Source: a phage. From it: a DNA stretch of 57,756 nt. Below, piece after piece: positions 20,384 to 47,355 of this stretch. The stretch lies in sequence record PV808483.1; one strand, given 5' to 3'. Both the position numbers and the translations under genes were made by a program. Below the pieces are notes generated by a model. It searched no databases and had not been told where the DNA came from. It worked only from the letters and a program-made list of their open reading frames with translations. Each line of letters begins with the position of its first letter. Positions within the stretch are counted from its first letter, which is position 1.

Positions 20384-21403
20384 ATGAGTTACAAACAGAA
20401 TTTTCGCGACGTTGGCGCACCAGATATATTCCTGTCTAACTTTTCTGTAAGTTACTGGCAGGATACATCACTGTTTGTCGGTACTCGTTATTTCCCGGTA
20501 GTTCCTGTTAATCAGGCTGCTGGTAAGTTTCTGACTTACCCGAAAGGTTATTTCGGTCGTCCGGTTAACTCCAAACGTGCCGAAGATGGTGTTGCTAACA
20601 CTATTGGTTACAAAACCAAAAACCAGGGTTACACCGTTGATGACGATGCGATCCGCATCTTCATTTCTGACAAAAAACGTGCAAACGTTCAGAACGGTCA
20701 GCAACTGGATATGGAAGCGTCTGCAGTAACCACGGACGCGTTGTTGATTAACAAAGAAGTGGATTTTGCTGAAAAATTCCTGACTGCTGGTAAATGGGGT
20801 CTTGATTTCCAGGGCAAAGACGCATCTCCGTCCACGGGCGAATTCCTGAAATGGTCTAATGCGAATGCCGATCCGATTGGTGATATCCTGTCACGTCGTG
20901 TTGCGTTCTCTCTGGCATCCGGTGGTCGTCGCTGGAACAAAGCACTGATGACGCTGGACGTGTATGACGCACTGACCCGTAGTCCGGCTGTTATTGACCG
21001 TATTAACGGTGGTTCTACCACTCAGAATCCGGGCATCGTGACTAAACAGGCACTGGCTGCACTGCTGGAAGTTGACGAACTGGAAATCATGCAATCTGTG
21101 GTCAATATGGCTGCTGATGGCGTTGAAGACGGTGACGGCAATCCGCTGTCAGACTTCCAGTTTGCTAAAACTGGTGTACTGATGCTCAACTATGTTGAAC
21201 CGACTGTTGGCAATATGAAACCTGTTGCGGCTGCAGGCTTCGTGTGGAACGAATTTATCGGTCTGGGCGTTAACAACGGTCCGTCTATCCGTACCTATCC
21301 GGGTGTTGAAGGTCGTCGTGGTAATTTCGTTGAAGCGGAATTTGCCATTGATGTTCAGATGGTTGCACCTGACCTGGGCGTTCTGTTCTACGACGCGGTT
21401 TAA
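20384..21403 (+). CDS. major capsid protein
   Basis: 339 aa; GGAG upstream; strong terminator follows; position after protease and scaffold. Confidence 0.65.
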   Translation: MSYKQNFRDVGAPDIFLSNFSVSYWQDTSLFVGTRYFPVVPVNQAAGKFLTYPKGYFGRPVNSKRAEDGVANTIGYKTKNQGYTVDDDAIRIFISDKKRANVQNGQQLDMEASAVTTDALLINKEVDFAEKFLTAGKWGLDFQGKDASPSTGEFLKWSNANADPIGDILSRRVAFSLASGGRRWNKALMTLDVYDALTRSPAVIDRINGGSTTQNPGIVTKQALAALLEVDELEIMQSVVNMAADGVEDGDGNPLSDFQFAKTGVLMLNYVEPTVGNMKPVAAAGFVWNEFIGLGVNNGPSIRTYPGVEGRRGNFVEAEFAIDVQMVAPDLGVLFYDAV

Positions 21404-21423
21404 TAACAACTGTGATATCATTA

Positions 21424-21452
21424 AGGGGTGGCTTATGCTACCCCTTTTTTTC
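21424..21452 (+). terminator. rho-independent terminator AGGGGTGGC-TTAT-GCTACCCCT followed by TTTTTTT
   Basis: Stable hairpin plus T7 run after the capsid gene. Confidence 0.8.
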
Positions 21453-21466
21453 ATGAGGTTAAAATC

Positions 21467-21820
21467 ATGCGTAATTCATATGATCCGTCACTGAAATATA
21501 TTTTCACTCGCCCGATGCTGTGGAACGGTAAACAGATGTCCGCTGGCGATAAAGTATCAACATCAAAAGCTATCCCGGCTGTTTTAAATGCCCTTGTGCG
21601 TATGCGCCATATTGAACCAGCTACTGCGACCGTTGAAGAACCAGTGACTGTAGCAACCGAAGAATCGACATCAACCACAGCTGCTGAAATCCGACGTGAC
21701 GCGCCAAAAACCTATAACGTTTATGTTATGGGTATGCCGATGAATTCAGAATCATTCAGCAGTAAAAGTGCCGCTGCTGAATGGTGTGAATCTCAAGGCT
21801 TGACATATAACTATTCTTGA
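21467..21820 (+). CDS. hypothetical protein
   Basis: ORF 21428..21820 trimmed to the ATG at 21467 because the upstream part lies inside the terminator. Confidence 0.4.
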   Translation: MRNSYDPSLKYIFTRPMLWNGKQMSAGDKVSTSKAIPAVLNALVRMRHIEPATATVEEPVTVATEESTSTTAAEIRRDAPKTYNVYVMGMPMNSESFSSKSAAAEWCESQGLTYNYS

Positions 21821-22002
21821 CCTATTGTTAGTTGTAGATAGTTTTCGTGGCGACTTTGCGGACTTTTTAGAAACTGACCACAAAGATAAATGCAAACGAA
21901 GAACGTTTTCTGATGGCGGCGTAATAGCCTGTAAGTCAGCAAGGTCTTCCGATTCCTTGTAAATAAATTCGGCGCACTGGCCCGGTGTGATTAATAATGG
22001 GC

Positions 22003-22082
22003 ACCCACGAATGAGAGTATTGTGATTGATCGTCGTTCTTGCGCGCAAAGTCTGCTCGAAGACAATACTCTCATTCGTGGGT
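22003..22082. repeat. 21-bp inverted repeat (ACCCACGAATGAGAGTATTGT / ACAATACTCTCATTCGTGGGT) with a 38-nt loop containing the palindrome TTGCGCGCAA
   Basis: Read directly in the noncoding island. Confidence 0.85.
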
Positions 22083-22320
22083 AACAACGGGCATGTCGCC
22101 TTAGTAAATCCCTCAAGGGTGCAGCGAATAATCCGGTAATGTCGTTGCCGTAAGCCACACGAAACGTGGCACACAACAGGTAAGAGCATTTGTTAAATGC
22201 GAAGTTATTCGCGCAGACGTTAGTCATAATCATCGTCAGTGCTCTTATCGTTGTGGTGAATTGCAGTTCTCAGAAACAACCAGAAGATAAGCGCCTGGCA
22301 CTGCAACACAAACACTCGCT

Positions 22321-22341
22321 GATAAGGAGGTGATCCTTATC
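22321..22341 (+). promoter_or_regulatory. hairpin GATAAGG-AGGTGAT-CCTTATC containing TAAGGAGGTGATCC, a 14-nt perfect complement of the 16S rRNA 3' end
   Basis: Read directly; followed by a possible 17-codon TTG-initiated ORF (22342..22395). Confidence 0.4.
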
Positions 22342-22509
22342 TTGCTGGCGGGAAAGCCGCAAATCGTGGGTAAAGCATGTTGTGAAACATCCTGAACTGC
22401 GTGTCGTTTTACATAACTGGTTATTCACGTGTCACGCATAGGGGTATGTTGGGACGTCAGGTGTGGATGACCAGTTATGTAAAACCCTCATTATCACCCA
22501 GAGCCATTT

Positions 22510-22535
22510 GCCGTCTGTTTAAGACGGCTTTTTTC
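22510..22535 (+). terminator. rho-independent terminator GCCGTCT-GTTTA-AGACGGC followed by TTTTTT
   Basis: Hairpin plus T-run at the end of the noncoding island. Confidence 0.75.
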
Positions 22536-22573
22536 GTGCTAATATAACGAAAACATTTCTCACAGGTGATCAC

Positions 22574-22984
22574 ATGGCTATTACAGTTGAAGGTATTCGT
22601 TATTTGATCAGTGTCCCTGATGTTACTGATGAACAAATTCAGTGGTACATTGACAACGGTTATACAAATCCTCTCAGTATTTGCGTCGCTCTCTGTGATT
22701 ATATGGCGTCTATTGCCAGCAACGATACTGACATTAAAGTAGGTCCGATCTCACTCAGCAGTAGTCAGTCAGCAGACGCCTGGAATAAACTTAAAAAAGA
22801 TTTTATTTTACGTATTAATACTGGCGCTGATTCAGGTGGCGGTTTGTTAGGTAGTTTTATGGGTGTTGGTGGAGCTACTTTAACTGGCGCTGGTATGCAA
22901 CCTGCTATTCAACGTGGTCAGTTCGACAACCCACCTGTAACACTTGAAAGCGGTAGTCATGCACTTAATGAGGGTGAACGGTAA
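22574..22984 (+). CDS. putative head-tail connector or head completion protein
   Basis: 136 aa; first gene of a translationally coupled block preceding the major tail gene. Confidence 0.35.
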   Translation: MAITVEGIRYLISVPDVTDEQIQWYIDNGYTNPLSICVALCDYMASIASNDTDIKVGPISLSSSQSADAWNKLKKDFILRINTGADSGGGLLGSFMGVGGATLTGAGMQPAIQRGQFDNPPVTLESGSHALNEGER

Positions 22985-23358
22985 TGTCAGACAAACGTCA
23001 AAGCGTCCTGAACGGTGTTACTCGTGCACTTGCTGAAGTAGGTGAGGATTTGACGGTAAAACGTGTGACAACAGTTCCCAACCCGTCTAATCCTACATTA
23101 CCGGGTACAACCGTTACTGAATCACACACCTGTCGTGGTTATATTTACCCATTAGAAAAGTGGGATCCGACTACTATGACCAGAATAACCACAACGATGG
23201 TAATTATGGATAGTCAGAGTTTTGAACCACGATTTGTTCCTGATCGGGGTGATGTTGTGGTTGATGAACGTGGTAAAGAATATCGCCTTCTTGATCGTCA
23301 AAATCCACGATTGTTAGGGGATGATATGGCATTTATTCACCCTGTTGGAGCTGCCTGA
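22984..23358 (+). CDS. putative head-tail joining protein
   Basis: 124 aa; ATGA overlap with the previous gene. Confidence 0.35.
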   Translation: MSDKRQSVLNGVTRALAEVGEDLTVKRVTTVPNPSNPTLPGTTVTESHTCRGYIYPLEKWDPTTMTRITTTMVIMDSQSFEPRFVPDRGDVVVDERGKEYRLLDRQNPRLLGDDMAFIHPVGAA

Positions 23359-23359
23359 T

Positions 23360-23791
23360 ATGGCTAAGGCTAACGTTAATGACATAAACCGTATAACAGG
23401 TGTCTTTAAAGACATTAAAGCTGACCTGCGAGATTTTACCGATCGTGAAGTCATCCGGTATGTCCTGACGTTACGTAATATTCTTGTCAGTGAACCACCT
23501 GACGGTACACCCGTGGATACAGGCTGGGCAAGCAACAACTGGTGGTTCGATCAGGGGCAACCCGCTAATAGTCCTGATACACCAACAGGTAATGTTGAAG
23601 CCAGTAAAGCACGTATCGAACAGGATACAGTCACTATCAGCAGTATTAAAGTTAATGGTCAGGAACTCCATATTACTAACAACGTTCCTTACATTGGGGT
23701 TCTCAATGGTGGTAGCAGTACACAGACACCTTCCGGGTTTGTCGAACGTGCTATATTAAAAGCCGGAATAATGGTGAGGTTTAATCAGTGA
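23360..23791 (+). CDS. putative tail completion or neck protein
   Basis: ORF 23321..23791 trimmed to the ATG at 23360 with GGAG upstream. Confidence 0.35.
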   Translation: MAKANVNDINRITGVFKDIKADLRDFTDREVIRYVLTLRNILVSEPPDGTPVDTGWASNNWWFDQGQPANSPDTPTGNVEASKARIEQDTVTISSIKVNGQELHITNNVPYIGVLNGGSSTQTPSGFVERAILKAGIMVRFNQ

Positions 23792-44676: not shown

Positions 44677-47355
44677 GTGAGTCAAGAACCACTTCGTTAT
44701 TATCAACTAGAAGCTATCAATAACGTGTGTCAGGCATGGTCAAGCGGTGCTGACGACGTGATTCTTGTGCTTCCCACTGGCTGTCATGCTAAAGACAGTG
44801 AAATTCTTATGTACAACGGTGATGTTATAAAAGTACAGGATGTTTTACCTGGTGATTTATTGATGGGTCGTGATTCATTACCACGAACCGTGTTAGCGTT
44901 AGCTCGTGGCAGAGAAGAAATGTTTGAAATCATCCCAGTCAAAGGGTCACCTTTCCGTGTAAATAAAAATCACATATTACATTTGATACATACTGAATCA
45001 AAAGAAGAAATAGACATTTCTGTAAGTGATTACTTACAGAAATCAAATTATTTCAAACATTGCCACAAGTTGCTTCGTACGGGGGTTGATTTCGAATATC
45101 GCGAACCACCGACTTTAGACCCGTGGTTTGCCGGGATTATGATCGGTGATGGTAGTTACAAATCAGGTACACCACGTCTGACAAATGCAGACTCAAGTAT
45201 TTTAGAAAAGGCTACTTTTTACGCAAACCTTTTTGGATGTGTCTGCAAAGATGTAAAAGGTAACAACTGTGTTACACGTTATTTCGGTTATCCCGGGTCA
45301 TCGCGTTCGGTTAGTAACCCGTTGAGCGATGCGATGAAATCTGATGGATTGTGGGGGAAAATCGCACATGAAAAATCAATACCTGATGTGTATAAAAAAG
45401 GAAGCAGAAACACACGTTTAAACGTTCTGGCAGGATTAATTGATAGCGACGGATATATTTCACATAAGGGCGTTGATTTTGTGTCCAAATCACAGCAGTT
45501 AGCCGCTGATTTAGTGTTCGTTGCAAGAAGCCTGGGGAAAGCCGCGTATTACAAAGCCTGTGTTAAATCATGTCAAACGGGTAATGCAAACATTTACTAC
45601 AGAGTGAGTATTAGTGGCGATTTAAGCGATGTACCATTCGTTAGAAAACATGGTGATTTAACGAGAAAGCAGAAGAAAAATCATTTAGTAACGGGCTTTT
45701 CTGTTCGGTCTGTTGGTGAAGATAATTTTTATGGTTTTATGGTTAACGGTGACAATCTTTATCTTACGTCAGACTTCATCATCCATCATAACAGTGGTAA
45801 AACACGTACTATGGCTGAACTACTAAAATCCGACGGTGTAAAAGTCATCCAGGCACACCGTAAAGAACTGGTTAGTCAAATCGCAATGGCTGTTGCTCGC
45901 CAGGGATTACCACACAGATTTATAGCGCAAAAAGATACTGTTAAGTTTGCAACTAATCAGCAGATGAAAACGCTTGGTTACAGTACCTATTCCCCCGGTG
46001 CTGACATCGTTATTACCAGTTCACAAACGTTAAGAACAAAACAGTACGAACGATGGTACAACGACGTGTCTCTTGTGTTTAGCGACGAAGCGCATCACCT
46101 GGTGCGTGGCACACAGTGGGGAGACTGCCGGGAAAAATTCCCTAACGCTAAAGGTCTGGGTGTTACAGCCACACCGATCCGTGCTGACGGTAAAGGCTTG
46201 GGTCGTCATGCGTCAGGTTACGCAGATCAGATGATCATCGGTCCATCAATGCGTGAGTTAATCAGTCAACAACATCTGGCTGATTATCGTCTGATTATGG
46301 CTGAAACAGACCTGGAATTAACCGCAGAAATGATTTCCCATACCACGGGTGATTACAAACCATCTGCGTTAAAAAAAGCGATGGAAGATTCAAACATTGT
46401 TGGTGATACCGTCAGTACGTGGAAAACATATGCAGATGGCTTACTCACTGTTGTTTTTACGTGTGATGTAGATTCTGCTGAAGCACTTGCAAAAGAATTT
46501 CGTGATGCTGGCATTCCTGCAGAGGCGATCAGCTCACGAAACAGCAATCAGGAACGAGCGGATATCCTGGAACGTTTTGAACGACGTAAGACGCTTGTAC
46601 TGTGTAACAACGATTTATTCGGTGAAGGATACGATTGCCCTGCGATGGAATGTGCTGTAATGGACCGTCCAACAGAATCTTACTCTTTGTTTGTACAACA
46701 AATGGGTCGTCCGTTGCGTTTCAAACCGGGTAAAAAAGCACTGATTATTGATAAAGTCGGTAATGTTCGTCGATTTCTGGCCCGTGGTTTTCCACTTCCA
46801 GATCAGCATTATAACTGGTCTTTAGATGACCGTGACCGTCGTTCATCTAACAGCAGTGGGAACAGTAACACAACATGCACAAACAAGGGTGATCCTGATA
46901 ACGGTATTCCACCGTGTCTGAAGCCTTATCCGTCTGGTCTGCCGTGCTGCCCATATTGTGGTCATGTTCCTGAAAAAGCCGAACGCTCAGGCCCGGATCG
47001 TGTAGAAGGTAATTTACGTGAACTGACACCTGAAGAACTGGAAGAATTACGCCGGGCAGTTGTGATAATCGACCGTGATCCTGTTGCGGTAAAAGAACAA
47101 ATGTTAAACGCGGGTGCACCCCCTGTTGCAGCTTACAGTGCAATGAAAAACATTCAGGCAATGAACGATGCACAGCGTAAATTACGTAGCATGATTACCA
47201 CATGGGCCGGTATTCAGCGTGATAAAGGTATACCCGTTGATGACGCTTACAAGATGTTTTACAGGGTGTTTGGTGTTGATGTACTTAGTGCTCAAGGGTT
47301 ACGTACTCGTGAAGCTAATGAACTCGCTGCAAGGGTTGCAAGTTCATTAATCTGA
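44677..47355 (+). CDS. SF2 (DEAH-type) helicase precursor interrupted by an intein
   Basis: Extein motifs YYQLEA, LPTG|SGKT (Walker A split by the intein), FSDEAHH; C-terminal Cys cluster CLKPYPSGLPCCPYCGH. Confidence 0.75.
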   Translation: MSQEPLRYYQLEAINNVCQAWSSGADDVILVLPTGCHAKDSEILMYNGDVIKVQDVLPGDLLMGRDSLPRTVLALARGREEMFEIIPVKGSPFRVNKNHILHLIHTESKEEIDISVSDYLQKSNYFKHCHKLLRTGVDFEYREPPTLDPWFAGIMIGDGSYKSGTPRLTNADSSILEKATFYANLFGCVCKDVKGNNCVTRYFGYPGSSRSVSNPLSDAMKSDGLWGKIAHEKSIPDVYKKGSRNTRLNVLAGLIDSDGYISHKGVDFVSKSQQLAADLVFVARSLGKAAYYKACVKSCQTGNANIYYRVSISGDLSDVPFVRKHGDLTRKQKKNHLVTGFSVRSVGEDNFYGFMVNGDNLYLTSDFIIHHNSGKTRTMAELLKSDGVKVIQAHRKELVSQIAMAVARQGLPHRFIAQKDTVKFATNQQMKTLGYSTYSPGADIVITSSQTLRTKQYERWYNDVSLVFSDEAHHLVRGTQWGDCREKFPNAKGLGVTATPIRADGKGLGRHASGYADQMIIGPSMRELISQQHLADYRLIMAETDLELTAEMISHTTGDYKPSALKKAMEDSNIVGDTVSTWKTYADGLLTVVFTCDVDSAEALAKEFRDAGIPAEAISSRNSNQERADILERFERRKTLVLCNNDLFGEGYDCPAMECAVMDRPTESYSLFVQQMGRPLRFKPGKKALIIDKVGNVRRFLARGFPLPDQHYNWSLDDRDRRSSNSSGNSNTTCTNKGDPDNGIPPCLKPYPSGLPCCPYCGHVPEKAERSGPDRVEGNLRELTPEELEELRRAVVIIDRDPVAVKEQMLNAGAPPVAAYSAMKNIQAMNDAQRKLRSMITTWAGIQRDKGIPVDDAYKMFYRVFGVDVLSAQGLRTREANELAARVASSLI
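44782..45792 (+). mobile_element. intein (337 aa) with LAGLIDADG homing endonuclease domain, inserted in the helicase P-loop
   Basis: Begins CHAKDSEIL right after LPTG, contains LAGLIDSDGYIS, ends IIHHN followed by extein SGKT. Confidence 0.8.

Follow-up and report, generated by a model that had tools for sequence, protein, structure and literature searches.

The island at positions 21821-22573 of the analysed window (a 57,756-nt stretch of phage DNA, sequence record PV808483.1) occupies about 750 bases between two head genes and has the layout of an autonomous RNA unit on the + strand. A first-pass annotation had described it as noncoding, with a large inverted repeat, a perfect anti-16S sequence and a terminator of its own, and all four features lie where it had placed them. 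The + strand holds short ORFs only; the arms of the inverted repeat (22003-22023 and 22062-22082) are 21 nt long and 100% complementary, with a 38-nt spacer that includes an inner palindrome; the anti-16S sequence, TAAGGAGGTGATCC (22323-22336), lies inside the hairpin GATAAGGAGGTGATCCTTATC (22321-22341); and the intrinsic terminator (22510-22534) consists of a 7-bp stem at 22510-22528, five of its pairs G-C, followed by TTTTTT. The terminator is kept in phages 9NA and Carvaje, and the Sasha record labels the homologous site as such. At the other end, a consensus scan predicts a sigma-70-type promoter, TTGACA-17-TATTGT (21800-21828, + strand, 10 of 12 matches), that is kept in Sasha and 9NA and whose predicted start, at ~21835-21837, falls right before the RNA core described below.

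On the opposite strand, the GenBank record of this phage (PJ16) annotates an ORF of 145 aa, PJ16_048 (21752-22189). We rejected it as a real gene because its protein belongs to no Pfam or PHROG family and 13 of the 28 homologous copies of the region have stop codons in its frame; it also overlaps the upstream gene by 69 nt. Bas79_0054/0055 are likewise spurious ORFs annotated across the RNA. That the region encodes this minus-strand protein, or else acts as a DNA-level signal (an origin, pac site or recombination site), is extremely improbable. Such readings can point to the GenBank annotation and to the large inverted repeats of the region, but substitutions in the helices are G.U-compatible on the + strand only, the + strand fold of 22003-22535 is more stable than that of the - strand by 22 kcal/mol, and unrelated phages carry the modules of the island in transcribed leaders. 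For a replication or packaging signal, which the first-pass annotation had also entertained, we found no support. Its suggestion of a structured ncRNA fared better: the island's own promoter and terminator, its covarying helices and the strand bias of its G.U-compatible substitutions all point to a + strand RNA.

Between 22003 and 22535, the 533 nt have a folding energy of -202.5 kcal/mol (z = -7.6 against shuffled sequences). The inverted repeat, a 21-bp helix with a 38-nt top (22003-22082), forms the stem and the first part of an inserted RNA domain of 165 nt that is optional: the insert (~22006-22167) is limited to PJ16, BDX09P1, Bas77/79/81 and a few others, the differences between the helix arms of relatives are mostly of the G.U-compatible kind on the + strand, and in L020 the top of the helix is swapped for ~180 nt. 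Next comes a hairpin of a type found in lambda (22168-22262), CACAAC-AGGU-AAGAGCA followed by a variable top and UGCUCUU-AUC-GUUGUGGUG, whose 3' strand has an alternative partner, CACUGCAAC, at 22299-22307. The lambda late leader carries this module after tR' (~44787-44862). Its stems covary across phages (ACAAC/GUUGU versus CUAUC/GAUAG, and AAGAGCA/UGCUCUU versus GAGUACA/UGUACUC or AAGGGUA/UACCCUU). The segment at 22231-22313 is shared with the leader of the P1/P7 ban operon, downstream of trnT (blastn identity of 79-82% to P1, P7, D6 and SJ46). A second long hairpin (22406-22485), a repeat that the first-pass annotation had not listed, has arms at 22406-22428 and 22463-22485 (23 nt, 91%) and carries in its top UAGGGGUAUGU (22439-22449), a motif common to Sf11/Bas79-type and N4-like phages; it is present in Sasha and absent from 9NA. 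The tops of hairpin modules also contain tRNA-like T-arm units.

The hairpin at 22321-22341 presents UAAGGAGGUGAUCC, complementary to the 3' end of 16S rRNA, and this is the sole such match in the window even at two mismatches (chance expectation 0.14, and far lower for an exact match). GGAGGUGAUC is kept in 9NA, Carvaje and VLCpiS10a, even though the hairpin itself is not kept in the Klebsiella phages, and the anti-16S sequence belongs to the ancestral 3' part of the locus. Most simply, it would be the ribosome-binding site of a candidate 17-codon micro-ORF (22342-22395; UUG start; MLAGKPQIVGKACCETS) that overlaps small hairpins, or else a 30S-binding motif. For this 3' part, and compatibly with any of the other readings of the island, we consider a ribosome-binding site or 30S landing pad possible, if somewhat unlikely; the micro-ORF or landing pad could influence how far the terminator is read through or how strongly the next gene is expressed. 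A stretch of 13-14 nt with anti-Shine-Dalgarno complementarity stops 6 nt before the UUG, the frame and stop of the micro-ORF are retained in 9NA, Carvaje and VLCpiS10a, and the ribosome-binding site of the next gene is related (AGGUGAUC, 22564-22571). However, these relatives are more than 90% identical at the micro-ORF and so give no power to test coding, one of its substitution pairs (AUGUU-GUGA-AACAU to ACGUU-GUGA-AACGU) instead compensates an RNA hairpin, and the minimum-energy fold buries most of the Shine-Dalgarno-like sequence in the stem of the hairpin.

The main cargo of the island was overlooked by the first-pass annotation. This core (module 1, 21837-22005, 169 nt) contains a resume-codon context, a 10-codon tag, a stop-codon hairpin and two covarying pseudoknots, and we regard it as related to tmRNA, with no tRNA-like domain; the features that had been highlighted before are secondary parts. 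An A-rich linker, AAGAUAAAU (21883-21891), with U-A at -5/-4 of the resume codon, is aligned by the Rfam tmRNA models to the stretch just 5' of the tmRNA resume codon; it is 9-14 nt long in five of the six lineages examined, and the distance from pseudoknot 1 to G90 in E. coli is 10 nt. The tag frame follows (21892-21927, + strand): GCA AAC GAA GAA CGT TTT CTG ATG GCG GCG, or ANEERFLMAA, and then TAA TAG. This frame lacks a start codon and is preceded by an in-frame stop 4-8 codons upstream.

The arrangement of AUAAAU|GCA, 10 codons and UAA UAG is kept by all 24 distinct tag variants, each with exactly 10 sense codons before the stop. Together they encode 14 different decapeptides, which follow the pattern AN[DE][DEN]x[YFV][LR][MAV][AV]A. 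Variable sites are distributed 5/5/9 over the three codon positions, so that the third varies most, and synonymous changes (AAC/AAT and GCG/GCT/GCC/GCA) occur. This pattern of variation argues for selection of the coding type on the tag.

Three helical elements downstream of the resume codon covary. The stop-codon hairpin (21910-21939), analogous to tmRNA helix 5, has across 28 sequences an outer helix that is paired in 100% of cells and an inner one that is paired in 95%, with a covarying alternative, CUGG...CCAG. In pseudoknot A (21940-21972; CAAGG..CCGA..CCUUG..UCGG), stem 1 is 98.6% paired, with three pairs altered on both sides, and stem 2 is 97.3% paired, with two such pairs; its covariation score of 0.228, compared with 0.116 in shuffles, was reached by none of 500 shuffles. 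Pseudoknot B (21975-22002; CAC..GCCC..GUG..UGAUUAAUAAU..GGGC) was parsed in an anchored manner after an automatic finder had proved too permissive, and varies across lineages with pairing retained, stem 1 in at least 10 complementary versions and stem 2 in at least 11 (for example CAGT/ACTG, TGGA/TCCA, TCCCTGA/TCAGGGA and GGCGGGAG/CTCCCGCC). The comparison of related phages for compensatory changes that the first-pass annotation had proposed yields stems and pseudoknots that covary across lineages. The z score for single-sequence folding of the core, 0.27, is uninformative, as would be expected of pseudoknots and an unstructured arm.

The covariance-model search that had been proposed alongside it gave matches to tmRNA, none of them at the gathering threshold. 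Rfam model RF01850 aligns at positions 206-304 (E = 2.7e-5), RF04321 also aligns, and RF00023 does so at positions 56-294 in a Felix O1-like copy; these alignments cover the tag-template region and the body, never the tRNA-like domain, and the best scores (15.7-33.1 bits) all lie below the thresholds (47-84). Apart from the tmRNA models, a search of 21000-23500 with E up to 10 returned just two weak, unrelated sub-threshold matches, and the core belongs to no Rfam 15 family. Because a nhmmer profile of the family finds no match in E. coli ssrA, the case for homology to tmRNA is made by the sub-threshold covariance-model matches together with the anatomy.

A complete or two-piece tmRNA was considered and rejected, as no tRNA-like domain is found in the window or in the related loci searched: ARAGORN reports no tmRNA, either in the window or among more than 50 loci related to it, and neither of the two T-arm-like motifs in the whole window is followed by an acceptor-CCA end. 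As to a separate acceptor piece encoded upstream, it is a promoter that lies directly 5' of the core in the window and in contexts of the Sf11 and Felix O1 types. The hairpin module that pairs with GAUAG from an upstream position in some phages carries neither CCA nor alanine identity elements.

Matches to the core occur in 705 of 50,697 phage records (~1.4%), including P1 and phages of the Felix O1, Vi1 and N4 types, and in 137 of 5,426 complete E. coli genomes (2.5%); it occurs only in phages and prophages and is almost never annotated. The module is widespread in enterobacterial phages. Between unrelated phages the core is 85-95% identical, its surroundings not, and several phage families have it by itself, accompanied by a promoter and terminator of its own or by a flanking tRNA. 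It lies inside the tRNA array of Felix O1-like phages, adjoins tRNA genes in many others and follows a dicF-like region in the P1 ban leader. Promoters of the form TTGACA-17-TAGATT and TTGACA-17-TATAGT stand directly 5' of it in Sf11/Bas79-type and Felix O1-like phages, so that in three unrelated contexts a consensus-like promoter is aimed to start within a few nt of its 5' arm.

Close relatives such as Sasha and 9NA grow without the core: in Sasha, 69 nt of other sequence replace 21831-22167, and 9NA lacks still more. The first-pass annotation had held that a lack of conservation in close relatives would speak against its reading, and conservation does fail in part; as much of the island is missing from these relatives, this marks it as an accessory cassette and is not proof that it has no function. 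The RNA modules of which the island is composed recur in lambda and P1 as well as in phages of the N4, Felix O1 and Vi1 kinds. Morons are autonomous promoter-gene-terminator units between the late genes of HK97/HK022-type phages. The island resembles them in lying between conserved head genes, in its own predicted sigma-70-type promoter and terminator and in its variable presence among close relatives, but its cargo consists of RNA modules, not a protein gene. We tentatively read it as an accessory, self-contained non-coding RNA cassette, an 'RNA moron' that would comprise the promoter, ~700 nt of modular structured RNA and the terminator; for this reading, held jointly with the model of the core's action set out below, our confidence falls a little short of even.

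Where pseudoknot 1 would be expected, the core has a 5' arm (21837-21882) for which no covarying internal structure was found and which is complementary to host tmRNA. RNAduplex pairs it with nt 54-108 of E. coli K-12 ssrA at -42.0 kcal/mol over 40 bp, through the helices UAGUUUUCGU/97-106, GCGACU/86-91, UUGCGG/75-80, CUUUUUA/68-74 and CUGACC/57-62 (ssrA numbering). The target spans the 3' half of pseudoknot 1, the frame-setting A86, the resume codon and the first codons of the tag. These energies omit the cost of opening pseudoknot 1 of the host and the internal structure of the arm.

Only one of 3000 dinucleotide shuffles of the arm did as well, and duplexes with 200 shuffled ssrA sequences averaged -28.8 and went no lower than -36.8. 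All 35 arm variants pair with the same stretch of ssrA, and lineages with other arm sequences or registers form 44 (lambdoid), 38 (P1), 37 (N4-like) and 24 bp (Felix O1-like) with it; in 7-11 and KNP4 a variable loop, UCGUCGU, is the complement of ssrA 94-100. Each of 49 variants prefers host ssrA (mean -43.3) over its own body (mean -25.0), and the phage template departs from that of the host in exactly the blocks that the arm pairs with. Among 112 enterobacterial ssrA genes from metagenomes, nearly all have these host target blocks unchanged; the variants seen are GGUUGG versus GGUUUG and GUAAAAAG versus GUUAAAAG in the host, and CUGACC, CGAACC or CAGACC and UUUUUAG versus UUUUAAG in the arm. 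A simple count of substitutions at the paired arm positions showed only partial compatibility with pairing (7 against 16), a figure confounded by misalignment and register shifts, and this per-column count was replaced by explicit hybrids for each lineage.

The signal is confined to the 5' domain: duplexes of ssrA with the whole core, or with the tag-template, pseudoknot A or pseudoknot B segments, are not significant. A blastn-type alignment of ssrA to the whole phage genome leaves the arm among the chance matches (E ~3), and raw duplex energies are lower still (-44 to -47) for some GC-rich 46-nt windows in other parts of the genome. The complementarity of the arm to its putative host target is extended and conserved, as for a trans-acting antisense RNA, though not significant genome-wide. 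The loop of the insert in the window is also 78% complementary to the arm, and lambda has that loop without the core. A long-range partner that would close the RNA as helix 2 closes tmRNA was rejected, as the energies against the 650 nt downstream and 300 nt upstream lie within the range of shuffles.

These observations suggest a model in which the core is a tmRNA derivative that joins an antisense arm to a resume codon, template, stop codons and two pseudoknots of its own, the resume codon lying 9-12 nt downstream of the arm. Such an anti-tmRNA RNA would mask the tag template of the host and offer its own, and we hold this, jointly with the cassette reading, with the same not quite even confidence. 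The phage RNA would anneal to host tmRNA, its template would take the place of the masked one, and ribosomes rescued by host Ala-tmRNA and SmpB would add the tag specified by the phage instead of ANDENYALAA; the minimum outcome would be that trans-translation is blocked. We infer production of the RNA, formation of the hybrid in cells and translation of the phage tag from the sequence comparisons described here. The fuller proposal, that an RNA of Enterobacterales phages reprograms trans-translation by silencing the ANDENYALAA template and supplying one whose tag is altered at the ClpX/SspB recognition positions, is possible but on balance doubtful. We know of no trans-acting template that works in trans-translation, and a template tethered through a rod of ~40 bp may not reach the decoding centre.

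The same complementarity would be expected of a pure antisense inhibitor or decoy, whose pairing inactivates host tmRNA, or which titrates S1, SmpB or RNase R, and whose tag is never translated. Such an RNA would need no tRNA-like domain, and synthetic anti-tmRNA oligonucleotides by themselves block trans-translation in vitro, in E. coli extracts (PMC3384345). Moreover, the AgvB, AsxR and Pas sRNAs are phage or prophage RNAs of the Q-to-holin region that pair with host RNAs (bioRxiv 10.64898/2026.05.13.724894). Left unexplained, however, are the 10 sense codons and stop of every tag variant, the synonymous changes, the tmRNA-like peptide pattern and the retention of the linker and of U-A at -5/-4 before the resume codon, and we consider a purely antisense role unlikely, if plausible.

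Alternatively, the modules might act in cis as a leader or processing scaffold that punctuates late transcripts (through stability, processing by RNase P/E/III or anti-attenuation), with the tmRNA-like part a hitch-hiking relic of a tRNA/tmRNA array and the ssrA complementarity an accident of ancestry. The modules do lie in leaders that are transcribed (lambda late, P1 ban) and in tRNA arrays; hairpin modules flank the core, one strand of each with two alternative partners; and the weak genome-wide significance of the antisense match, like the relatives that lack the core, would fit. But the core can stand alone with its own signals or a flanking tRNA, it is far better conserved than its surroundings, and its covariation and codon-level conservation point to selection acting directly on it; we judge this combined reading quite improbable.

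With tmRNA (SsrA; RF00023, and the two-piece forms RF01849, RF01850, RF01851 and RF04321) the core shares the A-rich linker, U-A at -5/-4 and GCA resume codon, a 10-codon tag that starts AN(D/E) and ends in hydrophobic-Ala/Val-Ala before the stop, stop codons in a helix-5-like hairpin and H-type pseudoknots downstream, and the partial covariance-model matches fall on exactly these shared parts. It differs in having two downstream pseudoknots within its 169 nt versus three in tmRNA, in the host-complementary arm where pseudoknot 1 would be, and in the lack of an acceptor stem (G3.U70), T-arm and CCA, so that alanine charging, or SmpB binding of the known kind, would not be possible. tmRNA is defined by the presence of tRNA-like and mRNA-like parts in a single molecule. 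Here the mRNA-like half appears to stand alone, under coding-type selection and fused to an arm complementary to host tmRNA, and the searchable literature holds no description of this module, of a tmRNA lacking the tRNA-like domain or of a natural anti-tmRNA RNA. If the model is correct, a template for trans-translation can be supplied in trans, and the core would be the first trans-acting template of this kind, and the first anti-tmRNA RNA, to be found in nature. Besides carrying tRNA genes, phages would then manipulate ribosome rescue and what becomes of proteins from stalled ribosomes, a new layer of host takeover. Should the antisense part alone work, phages would possess a natural inhibitor of a pathway under pursuit as an antibiotic target.

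The niche of the core, in the lambdoid Q-to-holin region and the P1 ban leader, is that of the AgvB/AsxR anti-sRNAs, the Pas sRNAs, STnc100 and DicF. With these RNAs and the anti-tmRNA oligonucleotides it also shares predicted base pairing with a host non-coding RNA; unlike them, it carries a replacement coding template. GOLLD and ROOL are large, ornate phage-associated ncRNAs found beside tRNA genes. The island is similarly a long, highly structured and ORF-free phage RNA, with a core often next to tRNA genes, but it is a mosaic of separable modules instead of one conserved fold and has no Rfam match to either. Within the window, the covariance models of STnc100, AgvB, AsxR, DicF, GOLLD and ROOL all gave no match. 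Elsewhere, STnc100-like matches occur in P1 and Ag3, and group I intron-like matches occur in L013.

The window derives from a 9NA-like siphovirus and is 98% identical in the island region to Escherichia phage vB_EcoS_PJ16 and Sashavirus BDX09P1. The island (21821-22573) lies between phrog_19242, a conserved small gene downstream of the major capsid gene that ends at 21820, and phrog_21889, the first head-completion/neck gene, which starts at 22574. As the first-pass annotation had proposed, the island holds no convincing ORF, the plus strand carrying short ORFs only. We also recovered the inverted repeat it had described, whose 21-nt arms (22003-22023 and 22062-22082) are perfectly complementary, the anti-16S sequence TAAGGAGGTGATCC (22323-22336), which is the sole match in the window even at two mismatches, and the terminator (22510-22534), annotated as such at the homologous site in the Sasha record. 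To these can be added a 23-nt inverted repeat (22406-22428/22463-22485) and a sigma-70-type promoter on the plus strand, TTGACA-17-TATTGT (21800-21828), located within the 3' end of the upstream gene and kept in Sasha and 9NA. The 3' 533 nt of the island fold with -202.5 kcal/mol (z = -7.6), and the plus strand exceeds the minus strand in fold stability by 22 kcal/mol. A minus-strand ORF annotated in the GenBank record of PJ16 (21752-22189) was rejected; it belongs to no Pfam or PHROG family, and stops interrupt its frame in 13 of 28 homologous copies.

We also note a strong intrinsic terminator (10-bp stem and T-run) at 21423-21446, directly 3' of the major capsid gene, so that two terminators within the late region bracket the small gene (21467-21820) together with the RNA cassette. 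Relative to PJ16 the core, a 169-nt module at 21837-22005, is 100% identical and the entire island only ~98%; the long hairpin at 22003-22082 has two G.U pairs in PJ16 and perfect pairs in the window. In 9NA (2577-3122 of the retrieved locus), the annotated start of 9NA_042 is probably too far upstream: as annotated, the gene crosses the island's intrinsic terminator into the homologue of the window gene at 22574-22984.

The island is both mosaic and accessory. In Sasha, Sergei and Solent, with flanks ~96% identical, 69 nt of unrelated sequence replaces 21831-22167, and a larger part of the island is missing from 9NA than from Sasha. Individual pieces reappear in unrelated phages: the core in hundreds of them, the hairpin module at 22168-22262 in the lambda late leader, where it follows tR', a segment at 22231-22313 in the P1/P7 ban-operon leader, and the motif UAGGGGUAUGU in Sf11-type and N4-like phages. 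The insert with the 21-nt inverted repeat (22006-22167) is present only in PJ16, BDX09P1, Bas77/79/81 and a few others, and the Klebsiella 9NA-like phages Carvaje and VLCpiS10a also carry a tRNA-Ser gene at this locus. Helix substitutions in relatives are compensatory, or G.U-compatible on the plus strand, which marks the locus as an RNA-gene slot with rightward transcription.

Rfam 15 contains no family that covers the core. Its tmRNA models give sub-threshold matches confined to the mRNA-like region: positions 206-304 of RF01850 with 23.5 bits (E = 2.7e-5) and RF04321 with 27.8 bits, while positions 56-294 of RF00023 align with a Felix O1-like copy. The tag frame (21892-21927) reads AUAAAU followed by GCA AAC GAA GAA CGU UUU CUG AUG GCG GCG UAA UAG, or ANEERFLMAA. 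Among ~60 core copies gathered from IMG/VR, GenBank phages, E. coli genomes and three other Enterobacterales, all 24 distinct tag versions have exactly 10 sense codons and a stop (UAA; UGA in one), and they encode 14 distinct decapeptides of the pattern AN[DE][DEN]x[YFV][LR][MAV][AV]A. Variability is highest at third codon positions (5/5/9), with synonymous changes that include AAC/AAT and GCG/GCT/GCC/GCA. The frame lacks an AUG, GUG or UUG start codon and is preceded, 4-8 codons upstream, by an in-frame stop; as the spacing from the 5' domain to the tag shifts by one nucleotide, there is no longer conventional ORF, and an overlapping AUG frame is unstable in length (5 to 9 codons). Read from the sequences, this conservation pattern is the hallmark of a template for a tmRNA tag. 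Downstream, covariation supports three structural elements. The two helices of the stop-codon hairpin (21910-21939) are 100% and 95% paired and supported by covariation, and the stems of pseudoknot A (21940-21972) are 98.6% and 97.3% paired, with five pairs altered on both sides and a covariation score of 0.228, against 0.116 for shuffles, that none of 500 shuffles reaches. In pseudoknot B (21975-22002), stem 1 occurs in 10 or more complementary versions and stem 2 in 11 or more.

What sets the core RNA apart is its lack of a tRNA-like domain, which is defining for tmRNA. ARAGORN calls no tmRNA in the window or any related locus, and the Rfam alignments omit the acceptor and T-arm. T-arm-like motifs number just two across the entire window; both are in unrelated positions and lack an acceptor-CCA end. 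Nor can an acceptor piece lie upstream, since the window, Sf11/Bas79-type siphoviruses and Felix O1-like phages all have consensus-like promoters positioned to start transcription within a few nt of the core. The core RNA is by definition not a tmRNA, but it is clearly related to, and derived from, tmRNA.

Within the family, conservation peaks in the 5' domain (21837-21882), or arm, for which neither covarying internal structure nor a general partner elsewhere in the RNA was found. When four core segments were compared with E. coli K-12 ssrA, the tmRNA gene, the arm alone stood out: it is predicted to form a 40-bp hybrid with ssrA nt 54-108 at -42.0 kcal/mol. Its segments UAGUUUUCGU and GCGACU face tag codons 3-6 (ssrA 97-106) and A86 with the resume-codon bases G90 and C91 (86-91); UUGCGG faces the 3' strand of pseudoknot 1 (75-80), and CUUUUUA (68-74) and CUGACC (57-62) likewise face that pseudoknot. 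Only 1 of 3000 dinucleotide-shuffled arms matched the hybrid energy, and 200 shuffled ssrA sequences gave -28.8 +/- 2.8 (minimum -36.8). All 35 distinct arms fall on the same ssrA stretch, with z mostly -4 to -6.5, and complementarity persists despite other sequences and registers in lambdoid prophages (44 bp), P1 (38 bp) and N4-like phages (37 bp); the Felix O1-like arm forms 24 bp with ssrA nt 76-107. Even the seemingly variable loop UCGUCGU of phages 7-11 and KNP4 is the complement of ssrA 94-100. For all 49 variants, host ssrA is a much better pairing partner (mean -43.3) than the variant's own body (mean -25.0). By the measure of blastn of ssrA against the whole phage genome the arm reaches an E of only ~3, GC-rich 46-nt windows elsewhere attain raw duplex energies of -44 to -47, and the RNAduplex values leave out the cost of opening pseudoknot 1. 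With these caveats, the shuffle and lineage results leave the antisense relation between arm and host tmRNA well supported, as a test set beforehand and by cross-lineage conservation, though not proven.

Of 112 enterobacterial ssrA genes taken from metagenomes, nearly all have the host target blocks unchanged; such variation as occurs falls in predicted bulges or might have matching arm variants. In the metagenomic genes (nt 49-125) it consists mainly of an A-run of 6 or 7, GGUUGG/GGUUUG and GUAAAAAG/GUUAAAAG, and there are arm variants that appear better suited to each host variant (CUGACC/CGAACC/CAGACC; UUUUUAG versus UUUUAAG).

The differences between phage and host templates coincide exactly with the arm-paired blocks, both in the resume context (GUC before GC in the host, AAU before GC in the phage) and in the tag codons (GAC GAA AAC UAC versus GAA GAA CGU UUU). 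In five of the six lineages examined, 9-14 nt separate the hybrid end from the phage resume codon; in E. coli, pseudoknot 1 and G90 are 10 nt apart. We propose that the core RNA, transcribed from its own promoter or freed, at the hairpin modules or tRNAs that flank it, from a longer transcript, would pair through its arm with host tmRNA and thereby hide A86 together with the resume codon and the initial tag codons; an intermolecular helix would take the place of pseudoknot 1, and the core RNA would offer its own resume codon at the normal distance. Stalled ribosomes would still receive host Ala-tmRNA and SmpB, and translation would restart on the phage template. We regard functional pairing with host tmRNA as probable; true replacement of the host template is a more tentative proposition, on which we lean towards doubt. 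The minimal alternative is that the core RNA is a pure antisense inhibitor of tmRNA, as are synthetic anti-tmRNA oligonucleotides, which block trans-translation in extracts (PMC3384345), but this leaves the coding-type conservation of the tag unaccounted for.

Under template replacement, phage tags would retain the N-terminal AAND part and differ in their C-terminal residues. ClpX recognises the C-terminal LAA and SspB recognises AAND..Y, so the fate of tagged proteins could differ. In the full-text literature, whose coverage excludes most subscription journals so that an earlier mention is possible, we found no description of a tmRNA without tRNA-like domain or of a natural anti-tmRNA RNA. 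Derived from tmRNA, the core RNA departs from it in the missing defining domain and in its predicted mode of action, which is new.

Core matches occur in 705 of 50,697 phage records and span 80% or more of the core in 286 of these; the matched stretch nearly always lacks annotation. Among the hosts are Salmonella, Escherichia, Klebsiella, Shigella, Erwinia, Citrobacter, Serratia and Enterobacter, and carriers include Sf11/Bas77-81-type siphoviruses, N4-like phages, Felixounavirus, Ackermannviridae, P1-like phages and phage 7-11. The core is also present in 137 of 5,426 complete E. coli genomes, in the Q antiterminator-holin interval of lambdoid prophages and unannotated by PGAP; this interval is a known sRNA hot spot (PasA-D, STnc100, AgvB, AsxR; bioRxiv 10.64898/2026.05.13.724894). 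An exact-pattern scan of one genome per bacterial species found three genomes only, all Enterobacterales. The usual neighbours are other same-strand RNA genes: in many phages the core is 5' of tRNA genes, in Felix O1-like phages it lies within a tRNA array between tRNA-Ile and tRNA-Arg, and in P1 it stands between a dicF-like region and trnA/trnT in the C1-controlled ban leader.

Several of these loci have features of their own. Felix O1-like typing phage 1 (1417-1662) has its own promoter, TTGACA-17-TATAGT, the tag ANDNVFLAVA with a UGA stop, and a shorter arm that retains complementarity to ssrA 76-107. In P1 (NC_005856; ~507-690, 1132-1276 and 1709-1828) the unannotated core encodes ANDDLMMVAA, 1709-1828 gives a sub-threshold STnc100-like match, and the annotated minus-strand ORF plp covers a hairpin RNA module 3' of trnT; plp and the adjacent upl may be spurious. 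Shigella phage Ag3 (840-2690) and two further Ackermannviridae loci (L021, L073) have ~1.85 kb without annotated genes around the core, with several T-arm-like GGTTCGA motifs and acceptor-like ends, one with CCA encoded; ARAGORN calls none of these motifs as a tRNA, and they may be tRNA-like RNAs with large insertions. A ~47-kb IMG/VR viral contig (L013, 2821-3573), whose core copy resembles those of N4-like phages, has two group I intron matches of 33.3 and 30.1 bits (gathering threshold 50).

The lower and upper stems of the hairpin modules covary, their tops are hypervariable, with T-arm-like units in some, and their 3' strand has two alternative pairings; by appearance they may serve as punctuation or processing elements between one RNA unit and the next. 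In the lambda post-tR' module (L067, 44787-44941), the 3' strand GUUGUGCUG can pair with upstream CACAAC or downstream CAGCACAAC, and the downstream pairing covaries, GUUGUGGUG pairing with CACCACAAC in Sasha and, via G.U, with CACUGCAAC in the window (counterparts at 22173-22178, 22250-22258 and 22299-22307). This two-way pairing looks like a switch or pseudoknot. The variable tops often hold a perfect T-arm stacked on the module stem, such as AUGGG-UUCGAGU-CCCAU (L063 ~617-668, L064 ~133-190, P1 locus ~1165-1200, L055 upstream of the core), and a T-arm unit lies 5' of the core in one Klebsiella phage and 3' of it in another.

The anti-16S sequence belongs to the ancestral 3' section of the locus: GGAGGUGAUC is kept from 9NA through the Klebsiella phages, and the surrounding hairpin is not. 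Its end is followed after 6 nt by the UUG of a putative 17-codon coding frame, preserved in all four relatives compared, which are >90% identical here. The ribosome-binding site of the next gene, AGGUGAUC, is a related sequence.
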